Shown here in pieces: positions 2,588 through 59,252 of a DNA stretch of 64,000 nt. The stretch is from an uncultured Candidatus Saccharibacteria bacterium (lineage in GTDB: Bacteria; Patescibacteriota; Minisyncoccia; Phycocordibacterales; CAYGLL01). Both the position numbers and the translations under genes were made by a program. The stretch spans positions 38,090-102,089 of the forward strand of contig CAYGLL010000001.1 in the NCBI GenBank assembly GCA_964350935.1, in the 5' to 3' direction. The notes beneath the pieces are model-generated. The model saw nothing but the letters and a program-made list of their open reading frames with translations. It was not told the DNA's origin and did no database searches. Position 1 is the first letter of the stretch, and the number at the start of each line of letters is the position of its first letter.

Positions 2588-4471
2588 ATGTGTGGCATCG
2601 TCGGCTTTATCGGAAGTGGCGGCAACGAGGACTTAGACCGGATGGTCGAGTCACTTCGACATCGTGGCCCCGATGATCACGGAAGCTTTTTTAAAGATGG
2701 CGTGGCATTGGGTCAGACGCGACTTTCGATTATTGATCTTTCGCCCACGGGTCATCAGCCGATGTGGGACGAGCAAGGGAAGGTCGGCCTCGTGTTTAAC
2801 GGGGAGATCTATAATTTTCAGAAACTGCGGGCGGAACTTCTCAAAAAGGGCCATACGTTTAAAGGTGGTTCAGACACGGAAGTGGTTCTTCAGGCATATC
2901 GTGCGTACGGCAAAAAATGTTTTGAAAAGTTTGAAGGTATGTTTGCGATCGGCATTTACGACAGTCGTAGCGACGAACTCATACTTGCACGTGACCGAAT
3001 GGGTAAGAAGCCGCTGTTTTACTGCCCCTTAAAGAATGGCTTCGTGTTTGGTTCTGAAATGAAAGCACTCTTCGCTTACTCTGCGCTTCCTAAAAAGGTT
3101 AATCTTCAGGCGCTTAATAAATATCTGCAGTATGAATATGTGCCAACCCCTATGACAATCCTTGAGGGTGTGTACAAACTTGAACCGGGGTCGCTTCTCA
3201 TTTATTCGAAGCGTGGGTATGTTGTTGAAAAATACTGGAAACCCGATATGAGCGAGAAGGATATGACACTTCCCGAAGCACTCTCGCGGTTCGACGAGCT
3301 GCTTTCGGAGTGCGTGCGTGACCGACTGGTTGCCGATGTTCCCTTGGGAGTATTTTTAAGCGGTGGGATCGATAGCTCAACGGTTGCTTATTATGCGCAG
3401 AAAAATTCAACAGCTCGTATTAATACCTACTCGGTCGGGTTCCATGAAAGTGGCCGCGGCTATGATGAGTCAGCACAGGCAGAGCAGGTCGCGAAACATT
3501 TGGGGACTGATCACACGATGCGTATGGTTACGTCGCAGGACATGATCGACATGTTGCCCACCATCAGTAATTTGATTGATGAACCATTTTCCGATGCTTC
3601 GCTCATCCCAACTTTTTTCCTGTCACAGTTTGTCCGCAAGCATATCACCGTTGCGCTTTCGGGTGACGGCGCTGACGAGCTTTTCGCCGGCTATTCAACA
3701 TTCCAGGCTGACCGGTTTGCACATTGGTATGAAAAAATTCCGCAATCAATTCGTCGCGGCCTCTTTGAAATTCCTATCGAGCATCTGCCGGTAAAAGATC
3801 GTTACTTCAGTCTTGAGTTTAAACTGAAGAAATTTTTCGATGGTTTTACCGGAAGCGCCCACCATCGGCACCAACTTTGGCTCGGTAGTTTTAATCGTCT
3901 CGAACGCTCGCGATTACTTGCGCCTGCGGTGTGGGAGAAGGTGAAGAGTTTAAATGAGTTTGATGATACCGATCGCTATCTCTCGGAGTCAAAGGTGGAA
4001 GATGTGCGGAATCGAATGCTCTACGTTTATCAGCGTACCTATATGATGGATTTCGTGCTGGTTAAGGTTGACCGTGCGAGCATGGCGGCTTCACTTGAAG
4101 TGCGTTCACCATTTCTCGATACGCGTATTGTTGAGTTTGCGAACTCACTCCCGTACTCAATGAAGTTGAATGGCTTCACAACGAAATTTCTACTGAAAAA
4201 ATTGGTTCAGGACAAGTTGCCCTCAGAAATAGTCACACGGCCGAAAAAAGGTTTTGGAATCCCACTTGCGTACTGGTTGAAGCACGGGCTCAGGAGTACG
4301 ATGCACGAACTACTCGGAGAGTCGGAGCTCAAAAAGCACGGCCTCTTCAATGCAGCGGTTATACAAGAACTTGTGAGTGATCATGAAAGCGGTCGTAAAA
4401 ACAACGCTAAAAAAATCTGGACACTGATGGTTTTTCAGCTCTGGTACAACCGCTGGTTCAAACCAAACTAA
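2588..4471 (+). CDS. Asparagine synthase (glutamine-hydrolysing), AsnB-family amidotransferase
   Basis: N-terminal MCGIVGF (Ntn catalytic Cys2), SGGIDSS PP-loop, 627 aa. This family is often recruited as a sugar amidotransferase in glycan loci. Confidence 0.85.
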   Translation: MCGIVGFIGSGGNEDLDRMVESLRHRGPDDHGSFFKDGVALGQTRLSIIDLSPTGHQPMWDEQGKVGLVFNGEIYNFQKLRAELLKKGHTFKGGSDTEVVLQAYRAYGKKCFEKFEGMFAIGIYDSRSDELILARDRMGKKPLFYCPLKNGFVFGSEMKALFAYSALPKKVNLQALNKYLQYEYVPTPMTILEGVYKLEPGSLLIYSKRGYVVEKYWKPDMSEKDMTLPEALSRFDELLSECVRDRLVADVPLGVFLSGGIDSSTVAYYAQKNSTARINTYSVGFHESGRGYDESAQAEQVAKHLGTDHTMRMVTSQDMIDMLPTISNLIDEPFSDASLIPTFFLSQFVRKHITVALSGDGADELFAGYSTFQADRFAHWYEKIPQSIRRGLFEIPIEHLPVKDRYFSLEFKLKKFFDGFTGSAHHRHQLWLGSFNRLERSRLLAPAVWEKVKSLNEFDDTDRYLSESKVEDVRNRMLYVYQRTYMMDFVLVKVDRASMAASLEVRSPFLDTRIVEFANSLPYSMKLNGFTTKFLLKKLVQDKLPSEIVTRPKKGFGIPLAYWLKHGLRSTMHELLGESELKKHGLFNAAVIQELVSDHESGRKNNAKKIWTLMVFQLWYNRWFKPN

Positions 4472-4478
4472 GACTTTT

Positions 4479-6464
4479 CTAAGGAAGGCGGTAAATTTTT
4501 ACTCCGGCAACATTGTATTCGAGAATAAGGTCGGGATTGCTCAGAATCGGGTCGGCAGACCAGATTTTTTCGCGGTCGCCCCAATAAATATAATCGAGTC
4601 GGTACGGGGCATCTGGAATTTCTTTTTCAAGATAGGTACGGTAATCGTTTACCACTTTTGCGTGCTCTTCGGCGCTCCAGAGAGGGAAGAGGTATCCTTT
4701 GTTGGTGAAGATACTACCTTTCTCGCGCGCGCGGTACTGATCAGTAAAGAGAAATGAAATGCCCTCGTGGTCTTCATCTTTTGGTGGGTAGGTTTCTTTT
4801 CGCGCAAAATAACTTCCAAATGTTTCTGCTCTAACCCCCTGGATACGATTGGCGTAGGAGAATCGCTCCATAATTTCTGCGTTGGAGGCAATGGTGTCGA
4901 GACCGTCCGGCACGAAAAGTTTGTTGTGAGTAAAGTGTTTGATGAGGGTATTAGTGACGAATGAGAGGCTTGAAACAACAGAACCTTCGGGTGTATGTTC
5001 CTCGAGCCATTGAATACTTTTATCGTCTGCCTCTTCAAGCGTTGCCGTTTCCATATTGTTGAATATATATTCGCGTTTGATGGTGGCTCCTTTAGCAAAA
5101 AGTACGGCTATGGCAATGATTGAAAGAAGCGTAATAAAACGGCGTTTATCAACCCCCCATTTTTTTAGCACGAAGTACCCGGCAACTATGAGCACGAGCG
5201 CTGCCGCAATCGCAAACGCCTCGAAAGTCACCGCAGGATCTTTGGTAATCAGAGCTTTAACTGAGAGGAGAGCAGCCGCGATGAGGGAAAGAGGGATAAC
5301 TGTTTTTTTGGAGAAGAGTTGAAGACGATTTTTTAGGAATTCATATCCGAGAACAATAAAGGTGAGCGTTAACAGAAATTGTCGCGGCTTGATCCAGTGA
5401 TCTGGTTGGGGATTGAAACCGGTAATTATCTGAAAGTTATAAACAAAAAAGACGGGCAAGAGGAGTGCGGGAAAAAGGAGTGCAAAGGTGGGATTTTTTT
5501 TGCGATACAAAAGATACATGAGTACGGCGAGCCCTGTGTGTTGAGCGTAGGCAAAGAGAACCATCGGGTAGAGAAAGACATCGTATGTGTGTTCAGGGCC
5601 GATACGAGCTGAGATGTCGGTGTAGGCCGGGAGCGATGTTACTTCAAAGAAATTAATCCAGTAGGGAATTGATAGTACAAGACCGATACCAAGAATTGTT
5701 CCTATCGTTTTCGCGTCTTTGAAGCGTTTGGCGATAAGAAAAAGAATGAGTCCAATTCCGAGCGCGGCGGAGAGGTACGCCATGTAGTAGAAATAGGTGT
5801 AGAACAGAACTCCGTAAGCGACACCCGCAGCGATTGTCCAGAATCGCCGTTTCGTTTTCATCGCTTTGAAAATCAGAATAAGTGCGATGAGGAAAAGGGG
5901 AACAGTAAACAGGGGATCTTCAAAACGGTTGAAGTAGAGGCGGTACTGAGGATTGAAAAATTGGCCGAGATACCACGCTTGATAGTATTTGGTGAAGAGT
6001 GGAACGTATGCAAGGTAGCGTGGTATGAAGATCGAGAGGGAGGCGAAAATAAGTGATGCAATCCGCATACCGACAATCTCGAACGCAAGAATATAGAAGA
6101 GAATAAAAATTATCGGCGGGATAAGAAAATCAGCGAGCTCGAGTCCGCCGGTCATGCTTCCCGTTATTTTTGCGAACGACCCCAGACCATAATAGGGAAC
6201 CGGTGGTAAAAAGGCCGGTGTGTCCGCATACTCAGCTATGCTAATGTCCCCACTCGCCTTGCCGGTGAGGAACACTTCTTTTGCTTTAGGAATGCTGTGG
6301 TAGCGTTCGTCGACTCCGATCAAGGTCGGGTAATACGGACGACTTTGCTCAGAAAGAATATCCGGGAGGACGAGGTGGTGTGCGCCGTGAATAAGTGAGA
6401 CTAAAAAGGCCAGTACCACCACAACGTAGTGCTTTTTCAGGTTTTCTCGAACAGAGTTAAACAT
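4479..6464 (-). CDS. Large integral membrane protein, probable GT-C-like glycosyltransferase (multi-TM core plus about 220-aa soluble C-terminal domain)
   Basis: 661-aa ORF with more than 10 predicted TM helices followed by a hydrophilic C-terminal domain. The architecture and C-terminal region resemble the 29-1636 protein. Confidence 0.45.
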   Translation of the reverse strand: MFNSVRENLKKHYVVVVLAFLVSLIHGAHHLVLPDILSEQSRPYYPTLIGVDERYHSIPKAKEVFLTGKASGDISIAEYADTPAFLPPVPYYGLGSFAKITGSMTGGLELADFLIPPIIFILFYILAFEIVGMRIASLIFASLSIFIPRYLAYVPLFTKYYQAWYLGQFFNPQYRLYFNRFEDPLFTVPLFLIALILIFKAMKTKRRFWTIAAGVAYGVLFYTYFYYMAYLSAALGIGLILFLIAKRFKDAKTIGTILGIGLVLSIPYWINFFEVTSLPAYTDISARIGPEHTYDVFLYPMVLFAYAQHTGLAVLMYLLYRKKNPTFALLFPALLLPVFFVYNFQIITGFNPQPDHWIKPRQFLLTLTFIVLGYEFLKNRLQLFSKKTVIPLSLIAAALLSVKALITKDPAVTFEAFAIAAALVLIVAGYFVLKKWGVDKRRFITLLSIIAIAVLFAKGATIKREYIFNNMETATLEEADDKSIQWLEEHTPEGSVVSSLSFVTNTLIKHFTHNKLFVPDGLDTIASNAEIMERFSYANRIQGVRAETFGSYFARKETYPPKDEDHEGISFLFTDQYRAREKGSIFTNKGYLFPLWSAEEHAKVVNDYRTYLEKEIPDAPYRLDYIYWGDREKIWSADPILSNPDLILEYNVAGVKIYRLP

Positions 6465-6562
6465 GGCTCGAATTATACATGTATTGGTAATATTTCAAAT
6501 TGAATAAAGACCAAAAGAATGTTACATTTTCACGGTGAAATGCGGCGGGGTCGTCGTAGAAA

Positions 6563-7135
6563 TTGCTTATGAAAAAAGTAAATCTAGGTTCCGGACAGTT
6601 TAATAAAGAGGGATTTATCAACGTTGATTTTGATTCGCATACGTCACCCGACGTAGTGCACAATCTTGATGTCTTTCCATACCCATTCGAGTCAAACTCA
6701 GTTGACTATGTTGAGGCAGACCACGTGTTGGAGCACCTGAGTGATCCGTGGAAAACGATGGCCGAAATTCAGCGCATTTTAAAGCCCGGGTCAACCTGCA
6801 GTATCCGCGTCCCGCATTTTTCCCGGGGGTTTTCTCATCCGGATCACAAGCGCGGCTTTGATGTAACCTTTCCGTACTATTTCGATCCGGCATTTAAGGG
6901 CGGATATTCGGGGACTGAGCTTCAGTGCGAATCGGTTACACTTACCTGGTTTGCTCAGCCATATTTTAAGAAAACTGTTTTTTCTCCGGGGTTGTTCTAT
7001 TTTCTTACGTTTGTCGGAACACTCGTAGATTTTTTTGCATGGATCTCGCCCCCCGCATGTTCGCGTATCTGGTGTTTCTGGGTCGGCGGATTTGAAGAGG
7101 TGAGTTTTATTTTAAAAAAACCGATTAAAAAGTAA
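6563..7135 (+). CDS. Class I SAM-dependent methyltransferase (small Methyltransf_11-like)
   Basis: VNLGSG glycine-rich SAM motif, acidic motif-II region, and a conserved LKPGS... post-I region, as in the other methyltransferases in this locus. Confidence 0.55.
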   Translation: MLMKKVNLGSGQFNKEGFINVDFDSHTSPDVVHNLDVFPYPFESNSVDYVEADHVLEHLSDPWKTMAEIQRILKPGSTCSIRVPHFSRGFSHPDHKRGFDVTFPYYFDPAFKGGYSGTELQCESVTLTWFAQPYFKKTVFSPGLFYFLTFVGTLVDFFAWISPPACSRIWCFWVGGFEEVSFILKKPIKK

Positions 7136-34562: not shown

Positions 34563-35498
34563 TTAAAGAGCAATTAAGATTGTGCCTATGACAATCACGA
34601 TGCTTCCGATAAGGCGCAGCAGCGTGTTTTTCTCTCCCAGAAACCAGGTAGCGAAAAGGATAACCCAGAAGACTTGTGTCCTCCTCAGTGCTCCACCGTA
34701 CGGGGCGATGCCGTACAGAAACACAGCGTTTTGAAACGCAACGCCGATACCCATGAGAATTCCAACGAGAAACACAACGCCAAAGTGTTTCTTATCGTGT
34801 CCGTGCCAGCGCCCCCGAAGCGATGAGTGAATCCAGATTGCAAGAGCGACGAGTGCAAAAACTGCTCCGCTAAAGAATGACGGATTCGATGCCAGTGTCG
34901 CGAGCTTGTCGAAGTTGATCGCGATTGCACCAAGCCATGCGACGGCAAGCGCCAATCGCGCACCCGTACTTTGAGTCATACGCCACAACGGTGCCCCAAT
35001 CCATGCGAGGGTGTGGTGCCATGACAAGGGCGTTGATCGAGCAACCAGCCCGGGAAGTTTCACTTCCTTACCTTTGAGGTAGAGGATATAGGCGCCGAGT
35101 GCAATGAGGCCGATACCGATTCGCCCGTAGAATGTGGGCCATTCGCGAAGAATCAAGAAGGACATGACAATCGCGATTGCCGGCTGGGCGGTTGAGAGGG
35201 GTAAGACAATTGAGGCATCTTCCAGTTTGAGAGCTTTGACGTTCCAGAACTGAATCAGGATGTTTAAGGCAACGGAGACGAAGAAGGGTAGCCAGAAGGT
35301 AACAGTTAAATGAGGGACTCCACTTACGATAAGGCTTCCGATAATTCCGCTTGTCGCAGCACCCATCATTGAAGCAACGGTGACAACGTCCTCGTGAACA
35401 CCGAGGTGCTTTACAAACTTAGCCCTGAGAGTATTTTGAATTCCCGCAATGAAACCTCCAATGATACCAACGACAAGCATTGATTGAGTCGAGGTCAT
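34563..35498 (-). CDS. DMT-superfamily (EamA-like) transporter
   Basis: 311 aa with about 10 TM helices and two EamA-like repeats (for example ...ASIVLPLSTAQPAIAIVMSFLIL). Confidence 0.6.
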   Translation of the reverse strand: MTSTQSMLVVGIIGGFIAGIQNTLRAKFVKHLGVHEDVVTVASMMGAATSGIIGSLIVSGVPHLTVTFWLPFFVSVALNILIQFWNVKALKLEDASIVLPLSTAQPAIAIVMSFLILREWPTFYGRIGIGLIALGAYILYLKGKEVKLPGLVARSTPLSWHHTLAWIGAPLWRMTQSTGARLALAVAWLGAIAINFDKLATLASNPSFFSGAVFALVALAIWIHSSLRGRWHGHDKKHFGVVFLVGILMGIGVAFQNAVFLYGIAPYGGALRRTQVFWVILFATWFLGEKNTLLRLIGSIVIVIGTILIAL

Positions 35499-47835: not shown

Positions 47836-47977
47836 AAACAGTTGTTTAAGGCGGAACAAGCCCGTCTATTGACTAAAATCCATTTTGTGATAGTTTTTGC
47901 CTGCCTATGAGTGTGGGCATTTTGGTACTTCGACATAAACAAGCCGGCTAAAGCTGGCACAACAGAAAGGTAGTTGA

Positions 47978-49009
47978 GTGAAATATACATTCGTAGCGTG
48001 TGACGTAAGTCCCACGAATGCATTTGTCGCCCTTGCAAGTCAGCTTGATGCTGAAGGGCACGAGGTGAAGGGTGTTTCTGGAAAAGATGGTTCGACAAAG
48101 CTTCAGGTCATGGATTACATTTCGGGCGCGGACTTCCTTATTGTCGGAATGTCTTCGACCGAGGAATTGGCTGCATCAGAACTTTTGGCCTTGAATCAGG
48201 CTCGTGCGAAAGGTGTTCGTTACGGTTTCTTCTCCGACATGCGCGGATGCTGGCGGGGACGCGAGTATTTCCATACGTTCTACGCTGATGCCTCACTTCT
48301 CTTCGTCACGAGGCCGGACGAAGCCGAGGAAGCGCAAAAGTCGTTTCCAAACGCGAAGGTTATTGCCGTCGGCCACCCGTCCCGAGAGTCTGACATGATG
48401 CCTACGACCACGCGGGACGAGGTTCGCTCCAAGCTGGGAATTGCCCACGACACGATTGTGCTTCTCTGTGCCGGTGTGAAGAAGCCCGAGTTCAACTTGA
48501 CGCTTCTTAAAGCCGCGCAGAATGTCGCAATCGCTTTGCGCTCTCAGCGAACCGTTCGGGTAGTGTTCTCACCGCACCCCAAAGACGAAACTTCTCAGGA
48601 ACAATACCGGGATGTGTTTGATCACGGCGTTTCGATCTTCGCCGATCCCAAAGAGTGGAAGTCGGTGAATTTGCTCCCTGGAGCGGACATGCTTCTCAAC
48701 ACCATGACGTCGCTCTTTTACGAAGCGTCGTCCCTGCGTATTCCGAACGTCTGCTACATGCCGGACAACGTCGCAGCACGCCGCAAGGAACTTCTGGGTA
48801 TTGCTGACCCGCCGGAAGAAAAGGAAGGCACGATGCTCGTAGCGCGCTCACCAGAAGAGCTCTCGGGACTCGTTTCACTTCTCTGTTATCCGGGGAGTGA
48901 AGTCCTGGCCGCACTTCGTCGTGAGCAGGAACTCCAGTACGGAACTCCCCAGCCGGCAGGTACCGCGGTCCGTCTCATGGTCGAGGCGATTGCGTCGATC
49001 ACGAAGTAA
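47978..49009 (+). CDS. Hypothetical protein, possibly GT-B-fold; GC-richer than flanking genes
   Basis: 343-aa ORF with clear codon bias but no confidently recognised motifs. Confidence 0.3.
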   Translation: MKYTFVACDVSPTNAFVALASQLDAEGHEVKGVSGKDGSTKLQVMDYISGADFLIVGMSSTEELAASELLALNQARAKGVRYGFFSDMRGCWRGREYFHTFYADASLLFVTRPDEAEEAQKSFPNAKVIAVGHPSRESDMMPTTTRDEVRSKLGIAHDTIVLLCAGVKKPEFNLTLLKAAQNVAIALRSQRTVRVVFSPHPKDETSQEQYRDVFDHGVSIFADPKEWKSVNLLPGADMLLNTMTSLFYEASSLRIPNVCYMPDNVAARRKELLGIADPPEEKEGTMLVARSPEELSGLVSLLCYPGSEVLAALRREQELQYGTPQPAGTAVRLMVEAIASITK

Positions 49010-49057: not shown

Positions 49058-49118
49058 CATGGTATTTAGGATATTGACGTTTTTGCCAATTATGGTAGTT
49101 TCAGGATGAATATGAACA

Positions 49119-50207
49119 TTGAAAAAAATCAACAAAAGGCTCAGTATGACGCTCGTTCCTGATCGCTACGCTATCTTTAAGAAGGTGATCGAATCTATTA
49201 AAGGAAGTTGCTCGATTATCCTTTCTCAGGTTGACCCGGATGCCCTAGCGGCGGCGTTCGCCCTCGCTGATCTCATCATGGGTTTGTCTCCCTCGACCAA
49301 AATCAAATTTTTCTACGGTGGTGCAATCGGTCATCCGCAAAATCAGACGCTCTTCAACAAGTTTGACCTGCAGGGACGTCTGCGCCCGATGAAGCAATTC
49401 AGTGAGGCAGATAACAAAAATGTCATGCTAGTCGACTCGTCGTCTTTGAAAGATGGCCGTCTGGGACTTCAGAGCTTGAAGATTGATCCGATTATCGTCA
49501 TTGATCACCATCGTGACGGTGACGTCACCGAACGAGATGGAACATTCGTTTGGATTGACACCGAGGCTGGAGCTGCTTCGACCATGCTTGTCGAACTTAT
49601 TCAGGCGTCTCTGCTTCCACTCACGTTCGATACCCCGATGGTGCCGTCCCTTCTTGCCGTTGGTATTTACACAGACACTCACGGATTAATTCACTGTTCG
49701 GCACGTGACCGAAGTGCGTACGGCGTTGTCGCCGACATAGTCGGTGCTAATGAACTGAGCCAGTTGTTTCAGTTCCCATTGCCGGCATCGTACTTCGAAA
49801 ACGAAGCGAATGCGTGGTCGAATCGAAAGATTGAGGGCGGGAGATTAGTCACGTATCTCGGAGTCATCCGGCCGGATCAGGGTGATGATCTGTCGACAAT
49901 CGCTGACAAGTACATTCGGATGCCGAATGCGAGCTTAGTTATTGTCTGGGCTCTGGTTCAGTTAGATGGCGAAAAGGCCGTTGTCCGGATCAGCGCGCGC
50001 AGCACTGATCTATCGCTTCCGCTCGGGGCATTTCTTCGGGAGTGTTTTCCTGAGGCATCTTCCGGAGCCAAACTTACCTCGGATGGTGTTGGAATTGGTG
50101 GGGGAACGATTCAGGTTGACTTCGGACCTTTCCTCATTCCGGAAACCAGATCTGAGGCAGTACAGCTCGCGGCAAAGTACGTTTTGACAAGGGTTTTTGC
50201 GGCCTGA
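49119..50207 (+). CDS. nrnA: DHH/DHHA1 phosphoesterase (NrnA-like nanoRNase/pAp phosphatase)
   Basis: VIDHHRDGD (DHH motif) and a C-terminal GIGGG (DHHA1 GGGH-like) motif. Confidence 0.7.
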   Translation: MKKINKRLSMTLVPDRYAIFKKVIESIKGSCSIILSQVDPDALAAAFALADLIMGLSPSTKIKFFYGGAIGHPQNQTLFNKFDLQGRLRPMKQFSEADNKNVMLVDSSSLKDGRLGLQSLKIDPIIVIDHHRDGDVTERDGTFVWIDTEAGAASTMLVELIQASLLPLTFDTPMVPSLLAVGIYTDTHGLIHCSARDRSAYGVVADIVGANELSQLFQFPLPASYFENEANAWSNRKIEGGRLVTYLGVIRPDQGDDLSTIADKYIRMPNASLVIVWALVQLDGEKAVVRISARSTDLSLPLGAFLRECFPEASSGAKLTSDGVGIGGGTIQVDFGPFLIPETRSEAVQLAAKYVLTRVFAA

Positions 50208-50223
50208 AACTGCAAAAACCTTA

Positions 50224-50253
50224 CGGCGCCTGGGTAAAACTAGGCGCCTTTTT
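50224..50253 (+). terminator. Rho-independent terminator
   Basis: GGCGCCT-GGGTAAAACT-AGGCGCC followed by TTTTT. Confidence 0.7.
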
Positions 50254-50257
50254 AATA

Positions 50258-50286
50258 CTTGACTTTTGGGATAAAGGCTGATAAGG
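50258..50286 (+). promoter_or_regulatory. Orphan promoter TTGACT-17-TAAGGT
   Basis: Sits between two plus-strand terminators with no downstream ORF. Confidence 0.45.
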
Positions 50287-50292
50287 TACACA

Positions 50293-50364
50293 GTGTGAGT
50301 GCCTAACACAAGTTGTTAGACACAAACGAATGTCTGCGAAACGCCCCTCTTCGGAGGGGTTTTT
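50293..50364 (+). ncRNA. Candidate small RNA (about 72 nt) running from the orphan promoter to a UUCG-tetraloop terminator
   Basis: A predicted TSS about 7 nt after TAAGGT; internal hairpins CTAACA-CAAGT-TGTTAG and GACA-CAAACGAA-TGTC; a terminal CCCCTC-TTCG-GAGGGG hairpin followed by TTTTT; no ORF. Confidence 0.4.
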
Positions 50365-50372
50365 CGTTTCTC

Positions 50373-50416
50373 CGCGAGTAAAAAAATCACCCTATCAAGG
50401 GTGATTTTTTTACTCG
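50373..50416. terminator. 44-nt perfect palindrome (20-bp stem GCGAGTAAAAAAATCACCCT / AGGGTGATTTTTTTACTCGC, loop ATCA): bidirectional terminator abutting the rpsA stop
   Basis: Read directly; the A-run and U-run lie inside the stem arms. Confidence 0.75.
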
Positions 50417-51565
50417 CTACTTCTTTTCAGTTTTTACCGCGTTTTGGAATGAAAGTGCCATCTTCTGTTCCTTAGGGTCAAACAAACTGATCTTAAAGGG
50501 ATAAGTTTTACCGAGTTCCAGGGAATTACGAAGTTTTTCTTCGGTTCCAAACTCAGAGATGTGAACCAATCCCGCGACTCCTTCCTCGATTGAGGCGAGG
50601 GCGCCGTGTTTGTTGAATTTAATGATGATACCTTGCACCAAATCGTCTTTCTTGTATTTCTTTTCTGCTTCGCGCCACGGATTCGGCTTGAGTGCCTTGA
50701 TTGAGAGGGAAATCTTGCCGTCCTTGATCTCGATCACTTTAACGCGAACTTTGTCGCCGACTTTGAAATGCGCGCGTGGGTTTTCAACGAGTGCCCAGTC
50801 AATTTCAGAGATGTGAACGAGTCCTTCAAGATCGTCTTCGAGTTTGACGAAGATGCCGAAGTCGACTGCGCCCGTAACCTCTCCCTGAACCTCATCGCCG
50901 ACAGAATATTTCTCAACGATCTTAACACGATCTTTTTGGTCAGGGTTTTTCTCAGAGAAGATGAGTTTTCCTTCTTTAGGGCTGATGGAAAGAATCATAA
51001 CCGAGATTTTGGTGCCGACAAGCTTTTTCAATTCCTCAAGAATTTTATCTTTGTCACCATCGGGAACGCGAGGGTAGTGTTCGGCTTTGAGCTGTGAAGC
51101 GGGGAGAAAGCCCTGAATTCCCTGCCACTCGAGGATAAGTCCTCCTTTGTTTGCTTCGCGAACCGGAATATCGAGGAGCCGCTTGTCTTTAATAGCTTCC
51201 TCGGCTTCGCCCCAGATAAGAGCCTGGCGAGCCTCTTTGAGAGAAAGTTCAATGTAACCCTCTTCGCCCTCGGTATCGACAACTTTAGCGGAGATGATGT
51301 CGCCGATGTTAATTTTCTTAATAATGTCGCGTGCGTTTCCGAATTCGCGACCGAAAATCATACCGGTGCCGTAGGGAGAAAGATCGACAAAAACAGCCGA
51401 CGGTTCAATCCCGATGACTGATCCTTCAACCAGACTTGCCAACGTCGGAGGGTTGCCGGATGCCGCAATGATGCGTGACATCGGGTGCTCCTTTTTTGCT
51501 TTAAGCGCTTCGTCGCTCTTTTCGTCTAGGATGACGACGGGCTCTTTTACTGCAGTAGTACTCAT
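50417..51565 (-). CDS. rpsA: 30S ribosomal protein S1 (short four-S1-domain form)
   Basis: Repeated S1 motifs (GDIISAKVV, GDEVQGEVTGAVDFGIFVKL, GDKVRVKVIEIK, GLVHISE). On the minus strand, the -10-like TATTAT sits 4 nt upstream of the ATG. Confidence 0.8.
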   Translation of the reverse strand: MSTTAVKEPVVILDEKSDEALKAKKEHPMSRIIAASGNPPTLASLVEGSVIGIEPSAVFVDLSPYGTGMIFGREFGNARDIIKKINIGDIISAKVVDTEGEEGYIELSLKEARQALIWGEAEEAIKDKRLLDIPVREANKGGLILEWQGIQGFLPASQLKAEHYPRVPDGDKDKILEELKKLVGTKISVMILSISPKEGKLIFSEKNPDQKDRVKIVEKYSVGDEVQGEVTGAVDFGIFVKLEDDLEGLVHISEIDWALVENPRAHFKVGDKVRVKVIEIKDGKISLSIKALKPNPWREAEKKYKKDDLVQGIIIKFNKHGALASIEEGVAGLVHISEFGTEEKLRNSLELGKTYPFKISLFDPKEQKMALSFQNAVKTEKK

Positions 51566-51789
51566 GCGTATAATAAAAAATACAGAAGTTCCGGAAATGA
51601 CAGTCGTGGCGGGAGATTTCCAGGGTTACTTTCTGCGTGGGTCTAATAATTGCCTTAAATCGTAAGGGCGTTAACAACGATCCTACAACAGGCAGTGGTA
51701 ATGAGTATACTCAGATTCTCTATTTTGACAACTAGAGAAGCGCTTCGAAAAGAGGCCGTGAAATAAGAAGGTATGCTATACTTTTTTGC

Positions 51790-55877: not shown

Positions 55878-57160
55878 AAGATTTAAATAAATTTCAGTTT
55901 GTGGTGATGGGAATTTTCATTTTTGCAGCGCTTGCTGCGGTGGTTATCTTTGCGACGACCAAAGCTCGTCCTTCGGGACAGGTGACTCTCGGTCCCGTTT
56001 CAGTATGGGGCGAGCTCAATGAGCGCACGTTTTCCGACTTTATCAATCGGGTCAATGATCAAATTCAAGATAAAACGCAGTTCGTTAACATCCGTTATTT
56101 TCAAAAAGATCCTGCCACTATTCACGATGAGCTTCTGGAAGCAGTTGCTGACGGGAGTGCGCCGGATATCATCATCCTTCCCCACGATTACATCGGAAAA
56201 TACTCACGAAGGATATTTTTGATACCCTATGAAACTATTTCCGAGCGTGCATTTTCAGATTTATTTACTGAGGGTTCTGAGATTTTCAAACTGCAGGGCG
56301 GTATTGCCGGCGTACCTTTTGCCGTCGACCCTTTGGTTATGTACTGGAATCGCGACATTTTTACCAACGCAAATATTTCCCAGCCTCCAGCTACGTGGGA
56401 CGATTTGAGCGATTTGGTCAAAGTGCTCACCATTAAGGATAGGGATTTTAGGATAGAACAAAGTCTTATCGGTTTGGGAGAGTATAGAAATATTGATCAC
56501 GCCAAGGCAATCTTAAGTGTACTCGCTCTTCAGCGCGGGTCACTTATTACACAGCTACAAGCTGGAAATGCAATTGTAGCGTCATTCGGCTCAGGCCTTG
56601 AAGATGCGCTTTCGTTTTACACCGCATACGCTGATCCGAGCTCGAATTACTATTCCTGGAACCGGTCGCTTCAGTCGTCAAAGGAACAGTTTTTACTCGG
56701 CAAATCAGCTCTCTACATTGGCTTCGGAAGTGAGGCGTTGGAGCTTCGTCAAAAAAATCCGAACCTCAACTTTGATGTAGCGGCGTTGCCGCAGGTAAAA
56801 AATGCTCCGCGCCGCCTTACCTACGGTACGATCTATGGTTTTTCAGTGCTCAGGACTTCGCCCCATATTGCAGATGCGCTTGGCACCATTTGGAAATTGG
56901 CGAGTTCGAATGCGGCACAGGCATGGACACAAATTTCAAATCTTCCGCCCGTTCAGCGCTCGCTCTTAGGCCAACAATTACCCGACCGGTTCGGTACGCT
57001 TCTCAACCAGTCGGCACTTATTGCAAAGGCGTGGCTTGATCCGGATCCTGTTGAAACAGACGGAGTGTTCAACAATCTCATTGAATCTGTTACGTCCGGA
57101 AAGCTTAGTGTCGATCAGGCTCTTATGACCGCAACGAATGAAATTAACGCAATACGGTAA
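55874..57160 (+). CDS. Extracellular solute-binding protein (ABC transporter family 1, sugar-binding type) with N-terminal membrane anchor
   Basis: N-terminal TM/signal segment followed by a ...DIIILPHDYIGKY...GVPFAVDPLVMYWNRDIF... SBP_bac_1-like pattern. Confidence 0.65.
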   Translation: MKDLNKFQFVVMGIFIFAALAAVVIFATTKARPSGQVTLGPVSVWGELNERTFSDFINRVNDQIQDKTQFVNIRYFQKDPATIHDELLEAVADGSAPDIIILPHDYIGKYSRRIFLIPYETISERAFSDLFTEGSEIFKLQGGIAGVPFAVDPLVMYWNRDIFTNANISQPPATWDDLSDLVKVLTIKDRDFRIEQSLIGLGEYRNIDHAKAILSVLALQRGSLITQLQAGNAIVASFGSGLEDALSFYTAYADPSSNYYSWNRSLQSSKEQFLLGKSALYIGFGSEALELRQKNPNLNFDVAALPQVKNAPRRLTYGTIYGFSVLRTSPHIADALGTIWKLASSNAAQAWTQISNLPPVQRSLLGQQLPDRFGTLLNQSALIAKAWLDPDPVETDGVFNNLIESVTSGKLSVDQALMTATNEINAIR

Positions 57161-57578
57161 AATTATGGAAAAACTAGTTGTATTTTGTTCGTCAAAAAAA
57201 TCTCAGTACCTTATACTTTTAGTTGTGGGACTTATTGTTTTTCTCGCACCGCTTCAGACAAGTTTTGCCCAGATTTCACAAGGAATTATACCCTGTGGTA
57301 CAACCTCGACTCATCCAGAGTGTACCTTCGATGATCTAGTTACGCTGGTGACGAATGTTATTAACTATCTTATTCTTGTTTCAGCTCCGATTGCCGCTAT
57401 TATGTTTACGTATGCCGGAATGCTCTATCTGACTGCCGCGGGTGACACCGGTAAAATAAGTAAGGCACACGGCATTTTTTGGACAGTGTTTATCGGGTTT
57501 CTGATTGTTCTTGCTGCATGGTTGATTGTGAAAAGCATCAGTGTATTGGTAACGCCGGATTATCGAGCTACTACATAA
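57138..57578 (+). CDS. VirB2/TrbC-like T4SS pilin-family small protein, paralog 1 (signal peptide plus two hydrophobic helices)
   Basis: Likely start at MEKLVVF (57165). Signal peptide ends ...SFAQ-I; the mature core ...PIAAIMFTYAGMLYLTAAGDTGKISKAHGIFWTVFIGFLIVLAAW matches the other paralogs. Confidence 0.55.
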   Translation: MKLTQYGKIMEKLVVFCSSKKSQYLILLVVGLIVFLAPLQTSFAQISQGIIPCGTTSTHPECTFDDLVTLVTNVINYLILVSAPIAAIMFTYAGMLYLTAAGDTGKISKAHGIFWTVFIGFLIVLAAWLIVKSISVLVTPDYRATT

Positions 57579-57591
57579 TATCTATAAATTT

Positions 57592-57984
57592 ATGAATCTT
57601 AGAAAAAAAATAGTCGGCGCAGCCATCGCAGCATCACTCCTGCTTCCGATTCTCAGTTTCGCGCAGATCGTTGTTCCCAATCCACCAGCTCCTCCGGGAG
57701 GTAGAATCCAGATTAATAATCCCCTCGGCGGCGGAAATAACAACAGCACGCTTGATGGGTTTGTCACGCGTATCTTAAACGAGGTTGTCGTACCAGTCGG
57801 TGCGATTATACTTGTCATCGCAATTATCTACACTGGTTTTCTCTTTGTAACGGCTCAGGGGAACCCCGAAGATCTCAAAAAAGCAAAGAATGCCTTCTTT
57901 TACACGCTCATCGGTGGCGCAGTGCTTTTAGGAGCTTCTGTACTTGCTCAGCTTATTTCGAATACCATTCAGTCACTTCGATGA
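57592..57984 (+). CDS. VirB2/TrbC-like T4SS pilin-family small protein, paralog 2
   Basis: Signal peptide ...SFAQ-I; core IIYTGFLFVTAQGNPEDLKKAKNAFFYTLIGGAVLLGA. Confidence 0.55.
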   Translation: MNLRKKIVGAAIAASLLLPILSFAQIVVPNPPAPPGGRIQINNPLGGGNNNSTLDGFVTRILNEVVVPVGAIILVIAIIYTGFLFVTAQGNPEDLKKAKNAFFYTLIGGAVLLGASVLAQLISNTIQSLR

Positions 57985-58343
57985 CACACCGTCTTTTTCG
58001 AATTTTCATTGGAATTGGGGTACTTGTACCACTTTTTGCTGCTGCTCAGATTACACCCTCAACAACCCCGACAACGTTTGCTGGTCTTGTGGGAATTTTC
58101 TTGAACATCATCAGTCTCCTTATTCCGCTTGTTGCGGGTCTTTCGTTCATTGTTTTTCTCTGGGGTCTTTCGCGCTTTATTATTTCAGCGGGGGATGAGA
58201 AAGCTCGCACGTCTGGAAAACAACTGATGATCTGGGGCGTTATTGCTTTTTTTGTCATGTCATCGGTGTGGGGGATCGTGATTGTGGTTGCAAATACCTT
58301 CGGTTTTCGGGTTCTTTTGCCACTCCTTCCAATTCCAGTTTAG
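57981..58343 (+). CDS. VirB2/TrbC-like T4SS pilin-family small protein, paralog 3
   Basis: Signal peptide ...AAAQ-I; core FLWGLSRFIISAGDEKARTSGKQLMIWGVIAFFVMSSVWGIV. Overlaps paralog 2 by 4 nt. Confidence 0.55.
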   Translation: MTHRLFRIFIGIGVLVPLFAAAQITPSTTPTTFAGLVGIFLNIISLLIPLVAGLSFIVFLWGLSRFIISAGDEKARTSGKQLMIWGVIAFFVMSSVWGIVIVVANTFGFRVLLPLLPIPV

Positions 58344-58361
58344 ACGCGGGTTTTAGAAAAT

Positions 58362-58724
58362 ATGAAAAATTCTTTTTTAAAGATAGCCGGACTCGGATCG
58401 CTGTTAGTGCCAGTGCAGGTTTTTGCCCAAATAACCCCATTTAACCCTGCGTGTATTAATGCCCGCGGGATAATCGTTTATCTCTGCGCATTGCTTAACG
58501 TAGTAAATTTAGCTATTCCTGTTGCCTTCGGCATCGGTGTCATCTGTTTTCTCTATTCAGCCATGAAATTTGTTATGAATGCTGAAAATGACAAGGAGCG
58601 CGATTCTGCGAAACAAAGCCTGCTCTGGGGAATTGTGGCACTTTTTGTTGGTTCTGCTCTCTGGGGATTGGTCCAAATTGTCGCGTATACGTTCAATGTG
58701 TATCAAGGCGGGACGATCTACTAA
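58362..58724 (+). CDS. VirB2/TrbC-like T4SS pilin-family small protein, paralog 4
   Basis: Signal peptide ...VFAQ-I; core FLYSAMKFVMNAENDKERDSAKQSLLWGIVALFVGSALWGLV. Confidence 0.55.
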   Translation: MKNSFLKIAGLGSLLVPVQVFAQITPFNPACINARGIIVYLCALLNVVNLAIPVAFGIGVICFLYSAMKFVMNAENDKERDSAKQSLLWGIVALFVGSALWGLVQIVAYTFNVYQGGTIY

Positions 58725-58850
58725 GGAGGAATTTGAGCCAATTTTTTATCCACAATAGGATTTTTGAGTTGTATAGAGAAGTGCTATCATTTTAAGCATA
58801 GTGAATATAAAAAAAGGTCGTTGATTTCATTAATTATTTAATTTATTTAG

Positions 58851-59252
58851 TTGATTATGAAAAAAATTTCAGCAAAACTTGCCATTCTCGGTGCAGCTTT
58901 GTTGCCGGTAATTGCATCTGCTCAGCTTACTACTGGTGGTGCAACTCCTAACTTTAGCTACGTAAACGGTGTTTTGAACGGAATTCGTGATGTTCTTGGT
59001 CTTTTGACCCCGATCATCTTTGCAATTGCGATCCTCTACTTCTTCTGGGGATTGGCAAAGTTCATCATGGCCGCTGGCGATGATGAGGCTCGCGCAACAG
59101 GAAAGAAGATCATGTTGTGGGGAATCGTCGGTATCTTCGTTATGACAGCAGTCTACGGTTTGGTACAAATTCTTGCTAACATTGTTGGTACCAACTCACA
59201 GGCTACGATTACGTTGCCCGCTATCCCTAATAGCACGGCTACATCACGTTAA
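58851..59252 (+). CDS. VirB2/TrbC-like T4SS pilin-family small protein, paralog 5
   Basis: Signal peptide ...ASAQ-L; core FFWGLAKFIMAAGDDEARATGKKIMLWGIVGIFVMTAVYGLV. Confidence 0.55.
   Translation: MIMKKISAKLAILGAALLPVIASAQLTTGGATPNFSYVNGVLNGIRDVLGLLTPIIFAIAILYFFWGLAKFIMAAGDDEARATGKKIMLWGIVGIFVMTAVYGLVQILANIVGTNSQATITLPAIPNSTATSR

Follow-up and report, generated by a model that had tools for sequence, protein, structure and literature searches.

A predicted small RNA gene beside the S1 gene, conserved in a narrow lineage of Parcubacteria

The short interval that separates a DHH-family phosphoesterase gene from the convergent S1 (rpsA) gene in the window (i.e. the whole 64-kb stretch of DNA analysed here) probably contains a functional small RNA gene, the predicted transcript of which spans ~70 nt, roughly from 50295 to 50365 of the + strand. 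A preliminary description of this DNA had proposed an independently transcribed small non-coding RNA between the convergent genes, and sequence comparison of six genomes strongly supports that proposal. The fuller statement, namely that this is a lineage-restricted, independently transcribed small RNA, which acts in trans through a base-pairing linker, is favoured with moderate confidence. Gene architecture, purifying selection, fold, strand and absence of coding potential are established here by computation only.

The proteins encoded on either side place the window in Parcubacteria/Paceibacteria, according to the names attached to the protein matches by their sources. Parcubacteria are ultra-small and uncultured and, like other bacteria of the Candidate Phyla Radiation, have genomes of ~1 Mb. 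A literature search found no paper on regulatory small RNAs in Parcubacteria or the Candidate Phyla Radiation. The small RNA, which is constrained more strongly than the S1 coding sequence, represents a concrete candidate for RNA-based regulation in Parcubacteria.

The unit, its boundaries and its promoter

The locus comprises the following features:

49119-50207, + strand: DHH-family phosphoesterase gene (Pfam DHH)
50225-50253, + strand: intrinsic terminator of the DHH-family gene (terminator scan; 9-bp stem with 7 GC pairs, then TTTTT)
50259-50367, + strand: small RNA unit, from promoter to terminator
50259-50264, + strand: -35 box TTGACT (TTGAC[T/A] lies 35-36 nt before the RNA start in all six homologues)
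50279-50287, + strand: extended -10 box TGaTAAGGT (TGnTAnnnT is kept in all six copies)
50295-50298, + strand: predicted RNA 5' end, GUGA of block GUGAGUGC (7 nt past the -10 box; conservation starts exactly here)
50299-50323, + strand: stem-loop 1, GUG.CCUAACA - CAAGU - UGUUAG.CAC (minimum free energy (MFE) fold of all six homologues)
50324-50335, + strand: single-stranded linker AAACGAAUGUCU (unpaired in each of the six folds and in their consensus)
50336-50367, + strand: terminator hairpin and U-run (terminator scan; compensatory changes)
50374-50417, no single strand: separate bidirectional terminator, 20 bp (terminator scan; abuts the S1 stop codon)
50417-51565, minus strand: S1 (rpsA) gene (three S1 domains; stop codon 50417-50419)

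The unit is thus delimited by two terminators, both of which had been anticipated: that at 50225-50253, by which the upstream DHH-family (NrnA-like) gene ends ahead of the promoter and which forms the 5' boundary, and that at 50374-50417, which serves the convergent, opposite-strand S1 gene, begins six bases past the extended small RNA hairpin and forms the 3' boundary.

The promoter, TTGACT-17-TAAGGT, had been described as near-consensus. Both elements are present, with the TAAGGT hexamer at 50282-50287, but this agrees with TATAAT at three of six positions only, and what characterizes the promoter instead is the TG that precedes the hexamer, i.e. an extended -10 box. The poor agreement with TATAAT is also the reason why the small RNA promoter was not listed by a generic sigma-70 scan of the window. 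Across the six copies, TTGAC[T/A]-N13/14-TGnTAnnnT sits 6-7 nt ahead of the conserved 5' end, as the predicted promoter. The pattern TTGACW-N13/14-TGnTAnnnT was observed four times in the window versus 0.17 expected by chance, and the other three copies are directly upstream of protein genes; therefore, it is regarded as the genome's own promoter type. Matches to the extended -10 pattern in the window lie at 35552-35525 (-), 47869-47896 (+), 49074-49101 (+) and 62271-62243 (-), and promoters of this genome, in general, appear to be of the TTGACW-N13/14-TGnTAnnnT type. At 35498, a start codon is found only 27 nt past the -10 box with no visible Shine-Dalgarno sequence, which suggests short leaders devoid of Shine-Dalgarno sequences in the window genome.

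In three of the six loci (L024, ~3575-3583; L026, ~1511-1519; L007, ~5066-5074), a DnaA-box-like 9-mer was noticed immediately ahead of the -35 box, 47-55 nt away from the predicted RNA start on its upstream side. The sequences are TTATCCACA (perfect) and TTATCCACC, plus TGTGGACAA on the other strand. Near the small RNA promoter of the window, L001 and L025 no such 9-mer is found; across the window they occur at a background rate of 0.11 per kb. Elsewhere in the window, five small genes (120-146 aa) follow one another at 57138-59252 (+ strand); their translations, as read, combine an N-terminal signal or transmembrane segment with a conserved C-terminal membrane core and resemble pilin- or TrbC/VirB2-like proteins, as are often seen in Parcubacteria.

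Homologues, selection and fold

Six distinct copies of the unit are available, that of the window and those of five other Parcubacteria metagenome contigs, which were reached by fetching contigs encoding close relatives of the two flanking proteins (DHH and S1). L001 (its contig is also that of L002 and L017) and L007 were found via the DHH protein; L024, L025 and L026 via S1 proteins 81-82% identical to that of the window. With the covariance model built on them (R1), the six copies score 73-95 bits and everything else in 161 kb scores 23 bits or less. Scans of genome contigs with the DHH protein and with the DNA pattern gave no match; the pattern scan of metagenome contigs only re-found the L002 contig (as L017), the other 12 loci (L011-L023) being chance matches, as were, by the covariance model, all seven loci from the viral contig scan. 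Neither pattern nor covariance model detected a copy in the DHH-anchored, non-syntenic loci L003-L006 and L008-L010, or in the S1-anchored L027 and L028 (S1 78% and 76% identical). The distribution points to a small RNA restricted to a narrow lineage of Parcubacteria (Paceibacteria). The unit occurs once in the 64-kb window and once in each related locus, and a repeated intergenic element (REP/MITE-like) was discarded, there being one copy only per sequence examined.

What is kept in all six genomes is the -35 box, the TGnTAnnnT -10 box and the RNA from its predicted first base, whereas the promoter spacer, the discriminator (6-7 nt) and both flanks are not conserved, the sequence upstream being unrelated. 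Conservation sets in abruptly at [G/A]UGAGUGC (UGAGUG being invariant and the first base being G in five copies and A in L026) and ends after UUUUUCGU, so that the limits of selection coincide with the predicted transcription start and with the terminator. Columns 1-50 of the RNA alignment are 70-92% identical (mean 81%); S1 coding DNA is 72% identical on average, and its four-fold degenerate sites are saturated among the six genomes (24-45% identical, mean 37%). The identity of 81% against saturated four-fold sites places the RNA body under strong purifying selection. Promoter, first hairpin and terminator, the conservation of which at homologous loci was at stake, behave as one unit in six genomes.

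A common fold is found in all six homologues, with a short 5' tail, stem-loop 1, an unpaired linker and a long terminator hairpin, and fold z-scores ranging from -3.7 to -6.5. Standard pairs make up 95.3% of cells in the model-based alignment versus 44-54% when the 3' partners are slid, and the observed covariation score was reached by none of 500 shuffles. Both partners are changed in three pairs, of which the terminator holds two and stem-loop 1 one. In the terminator hairpin, the GC stem (CCCCUC-UUCG-GAGGGG) is variable, and the A/U-rich base that surrounds it (GCGAAA...UUUUUCGU) is invariant; the core stem, GCCCCTC-TTCG-GAGGGGT, lies at 50343-50360, ~55 nt past the -10 box, and is followed by TTTTT. 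The canonical intrinsic terminator with five U residues of the preliminary description was confirmed by the terminator scan and is kept with compensatory changes in the homologues: 96% of cells are paired over the 14 pairs of the helix, two of which carry double-sided changes, with up to four pair types (GC, AU, CG and UA in columns 58/80; CG, UA and UG in columns 55/83). Stem-loop 1, the loop of which contains AAG in every copy, shows only one change that is clearly compensatory (A-U to C-G, in L026) besides several U-A to U-G changes. Covariation in six sequences is solid for the terminator, and supportive but not conclusive for stem-loop 1; as most of it resides in the terminator, it supports termination rather than a specific function. 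The strand is fixed as well, since ~19 G-U cells, which would be A-C mismatches if read on the other strand, and the U-run identify the + strand, where the promoter is also found.

The folding and covariation checks, while returning a shared fold with compensatory changes across the six homologues, modify the internal structure originally proposed, which consisted of two hairpins. CTAACA/TGTTAG is conserved, inside the longer stem-loop at 50299-50323. The second one (GACA-N8-TGTC) did not survive, being absent from the MFE fold and unable to form in L001, L007, L024, L025 and L026; the stretch assigned to it is the conserved single-stranded linker. This segment of ~12 nt is the only long unpaired conserved segment of the small RNA and holds most of an invariant 12-mer, AAUGUCUGCGAA (50329-50340), the last five bases of which belong to the base of the terminator stem. 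The linker with AAUGUCUGCGAA is a candidate seed or protein-binding site.

The absence of an open reading frame, already remarked upon, is borne out by six-frame translation of the six homologues, which share no conserved reading frame on either strand; the indels between them are not multiples of three and shift the frame. A search of Rfam 15 (4227 covariance models) gave no match at gathering thresholds in the whole window or in seven related loci, so that no described family corresponds to the unit there. At permissive E-values only hairpin- or terminator-shaped matches appeared, with less than half the gathering score, and at E<=1 nothing was found over the small RNA in L024 or L026. ARAGORN predicted no tRNA or tmRNA gene in the window. 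Among other candidates, a type I toxin-antitoxin system was rejected because the antisense frames contain no conserved or hydrophobic ORF; dif, parS, boxA, SRP RNA and a tRNA anticodon-loop mimic were dismissed by inspection, on sequence mismatch or on positions that covary in stems, and so was a preQ1-like pseudoknot, for lack of complementarity between loop and linker.

The genomic context varies around the unit, and all six loci have just one neighbour in common, the 3' end of the S1 gene; the DHH gene is upstream of the small RNA in the window, L001, L007 and L024, and is lost in L025 and L026. In L025, the place upstream is taken by a homologue of window ORF 47978-49009. In L026, where the unit is inverted, it lies downstream of S1 in the same orientation, converges with a Peptidase_M29 gene and has retained both its promoter and its terminator. 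Because the whole unit is inverted yet intact, it is autonomous rather than part of the untranslated region of a neighbour. The next gene is convergent at every locus (S1 in five, Peptidase_M29 in L026), and a riboswitch or cis-regulatory leader with attenuator was excluded, as a same-strand downstream gene is missing in all six. In L024 and L025, no terminator other than the A-tract/U-tract hairpin of the small RNA is present between the small RNA and S1 genes, and this one probably serves both. In L025, the ~200 nt at 3850-4060, which separate the small RNA promoter from the homologue of ORF 47978-49009, hold internally repeated, complementary GC-rich segments (e.g. ...cgcccgaataccctgcggtcttggcgcaggg... 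and ...gaaggtattcggctaggg...) that are absent elsewhere among the loci.

Possible mode of action and rival explanations

Transcription of the unit, its action in trans and the base-pairing mode are what we infer from this arrangement. An extended -10 promoter of the sigma-70 type would drive the synthesis of a ~70-nt RNA, to be ended by the intrinsic terminator, and the RNA would act in trans via the unpaired linker carrying AAUGUCUGCGAA, which continues into the base of the terminator stem. The linker would most likely pair with another RNA, at a conserved site, in the manner of the classical trans-encoded small RNAs of bacteria, base-pairing being the most common use of one invariant unpaired segment in a small RNA; protein binding would be less likely, with the invariant 12-mer fitting a protein-binding site as well as a seed.

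Searches for a partner were carried out within the available sequence. Against 59 translation-initiation regions in the window, the best energy for the linker seed was -15.6 kcal/mol, a value matched by 68% of shuffled seeds, and whole-locus scans, which took in the neighbouring genes at the other loci and covered less than ~10% of the genome, did not find a conserved complementary site on an mRNA strand. In none of the genomes did the small RNA pair with the S1 5' leader better than shuffles did; a 6-nt UCUGCG/CGCAGA match to the S1 leader stem was dropped because only three of the six genomes have it. A recurrent match inside S1 was also set aside, as it is on the antisense strand and reflects sense-sense similarity (AAUGCCCGCGA versus AAUGUCUGCGA).

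The S1 mRNA 5' leader itself has a conserved block, UAAGGCAAUUAUUAG...ACGCAGAAAGUAACCC(C/U)GG, found at ~51575-51665 (minus) in the window, 6482-6580 (-) in L001, 2085-2215 (+) in L024 and 6400-6520 (-) in L007. The leader also has a long hairpin (CAGAAAGU..CCGG / CCGG..ACUUCUG), with a U-run then following just ahead of the start codon; it has no Rfam match at the gathering threshold and could be an S1 autoregulatory leader or attenuator. Stem-loop 1 and the linker align weakly with this block in the window and L007, where the leader positions involved are homologous.

This similarity bears on the possibility that the RNA binds or sequesters a protein, possibly S1, the linker (and perhaps a similar 5' block) acting as a decoy for a site to which the protein normally binds, e.g. 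in the S1 mRNA leader. Such a role, which is judged rather unlikely, would account for the persistence of the S1 3' end beside the unit in all six loci despite the loss of the DHH gene in L025 and L026 and the inversion in L026; it would also be in line with the full invariance of the 12-mer with no RNA target found in the sequence searched, and with the presence of two similar motifs, GUGAGUGC and AUGUCUGC, on either side of the hairpin. As for the resemblance to the leader, ~3% of shuffles are as good in the window and likewise in L007, but significance is not reached in the remaining four genomes, and the two cases are not independent because window and L007 are each other's closest relatives. 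Moreover, the S1 proteins of these genomes are at least 77% identical, and the adjacency may be mere inheritance; the linker, in turn, corresponds only in part to the A/U-rich single strands that S1 generally favours. The narrower version, a stand-alone decoy dedicated to S1, which imitates the region bound by S1 in the S1 leader or in S1-dependent mRNAs and is possibly coupled to DnaA in some genomes, is considered very unlikely. If true, it would tune free S1, hence translation initiation, where genes are largely devoid of Shine-Dalgarno sequences, and the coupling may take place, in some genomes, via the DnaA box at the promoter. Convergence with a gene at all six loci (S1 in five, Peptidase_M29 in L026) raises, instead, the question of a cis antisense or convergent-transcription device, operating by interference, by overlap of 3' ends at a shared bidirectional terminator or by read-through antisense RNA. 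The hairpin that stands alone between the genes in L024 and L025, where S1 has no separate terminator, and the invariance of its A/U-rich base, the source of bidirectionality, speak for it. The window, L001 and L007, however, have a strong separate S1 terminator, so that the two transcripts need not overlap; the partner gene is a different one in L026, and the invariant linker and the conserved stem-loop 1 upstream of the terminator are left unexplained, which makes this explanation improbable.

Two further readings dispense with a functional non-coding RNA. Stem-loop 1 is, in DNA, an inverted repeat (CTAACA-N5-TGTTAG) that could be a palindromic operator or, more generally, part of a protein site accompanied by promoter and terminator punctuation, and the DnaA-box-like 9-mers upstream of the -35 box in three of the six loci might be taken in the same sense. 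The half-sites, however, vary in sequence but keep pairing (G-U pairs, i.e. T/G in DNA, and one A-U to C-G change), conservation begins at the predicted +1 and spans the non-palindromic 12-mer, and a terminator with compensatory changes is found at a fixed distance downstream; a DNA-level element is, on this evidence, highly improbable. Hardly credible is a gene for a tiny protein, be it a leaderless mRNA read from the 5' GUG/AUG or an internal ORF beginning with AUG-UCU-GCG-AAA. A start codon is kept as the predicted first codon (GUG in five copies, AUG in the remaining one), the conserved AUGUCUGCGAAA would encode M-S-A-K, and genes of the window genome often have no Shine-Dalgarno sequence. 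Nevertheless, the products of the 5' start would be of 3, 3, 27, 33, more than 40 and 7 residues, with nothing shared past VSA/MSA; the MSAK frame diverges at once and stays open across the terminator hairpin up to the U-run, and the indels among homologues do not respect triplets.

Relation to known systems

The reading preferred here, a small RNA that would pair through its linker, is of an ordinary kind: the small RNA is absent from Rfam and nothing points to a new principle. If it is indeed an ordinary base-pairing small RNA, its description amounts to a useful annotation and to a candidate new Rfam family. Covariance model R1 can be used to map its distribution, and the fixed place beside the S1 gene provides a starting hypothesis for function.

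With leaders of ribosomal-protein mRNAs and their mimics the small RNA shares the vicinity of the S1 gene and, in two genomes, the weak resemblance to the S1 leader. Unlike them, it adjoins the 3' end of that gene, in most loci on the other strand, and has its own promoter and terminator and, for these reasons, cannot be a cis leader. It is short, highly conserved and stand-alone, as are protein-sequestering or mimic RNAs (CsrB/RsmY type, 6S RNA), but it has neither GGA loop motifs nor repeated binding motifs, and is far too short for 6S RNA. A sub-threshold Rfam match of the small RNA to RsmY (18.3 bits versus a gathering score of 57) derives from the hairpin-plus-terminator shape alone.

A further term of comparison is given by the trans-encoded bacterial small RNAs with an intrinsic terminator, such as those of the Hfq-independent RoxS/RsaE type of Firmicutes. 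The small RNA described here resembles no such family, be it in sequence or by covariance model, its conserved segment is neither C-rich nor anti-Shine-Dalgarno, and its host is a Parcubacteria genome. Like RoxS/RsaE-type small RNAs, however, it is an intergenic, ORF-less and lineage-restricted unit of ~70 nt, with its own (here predicted) promoter of the sigma-70 type, in which a stem-loop at the 5' end is followed by a conserved segment left unpaired between hairpins and then by a Rho-independent terminator.
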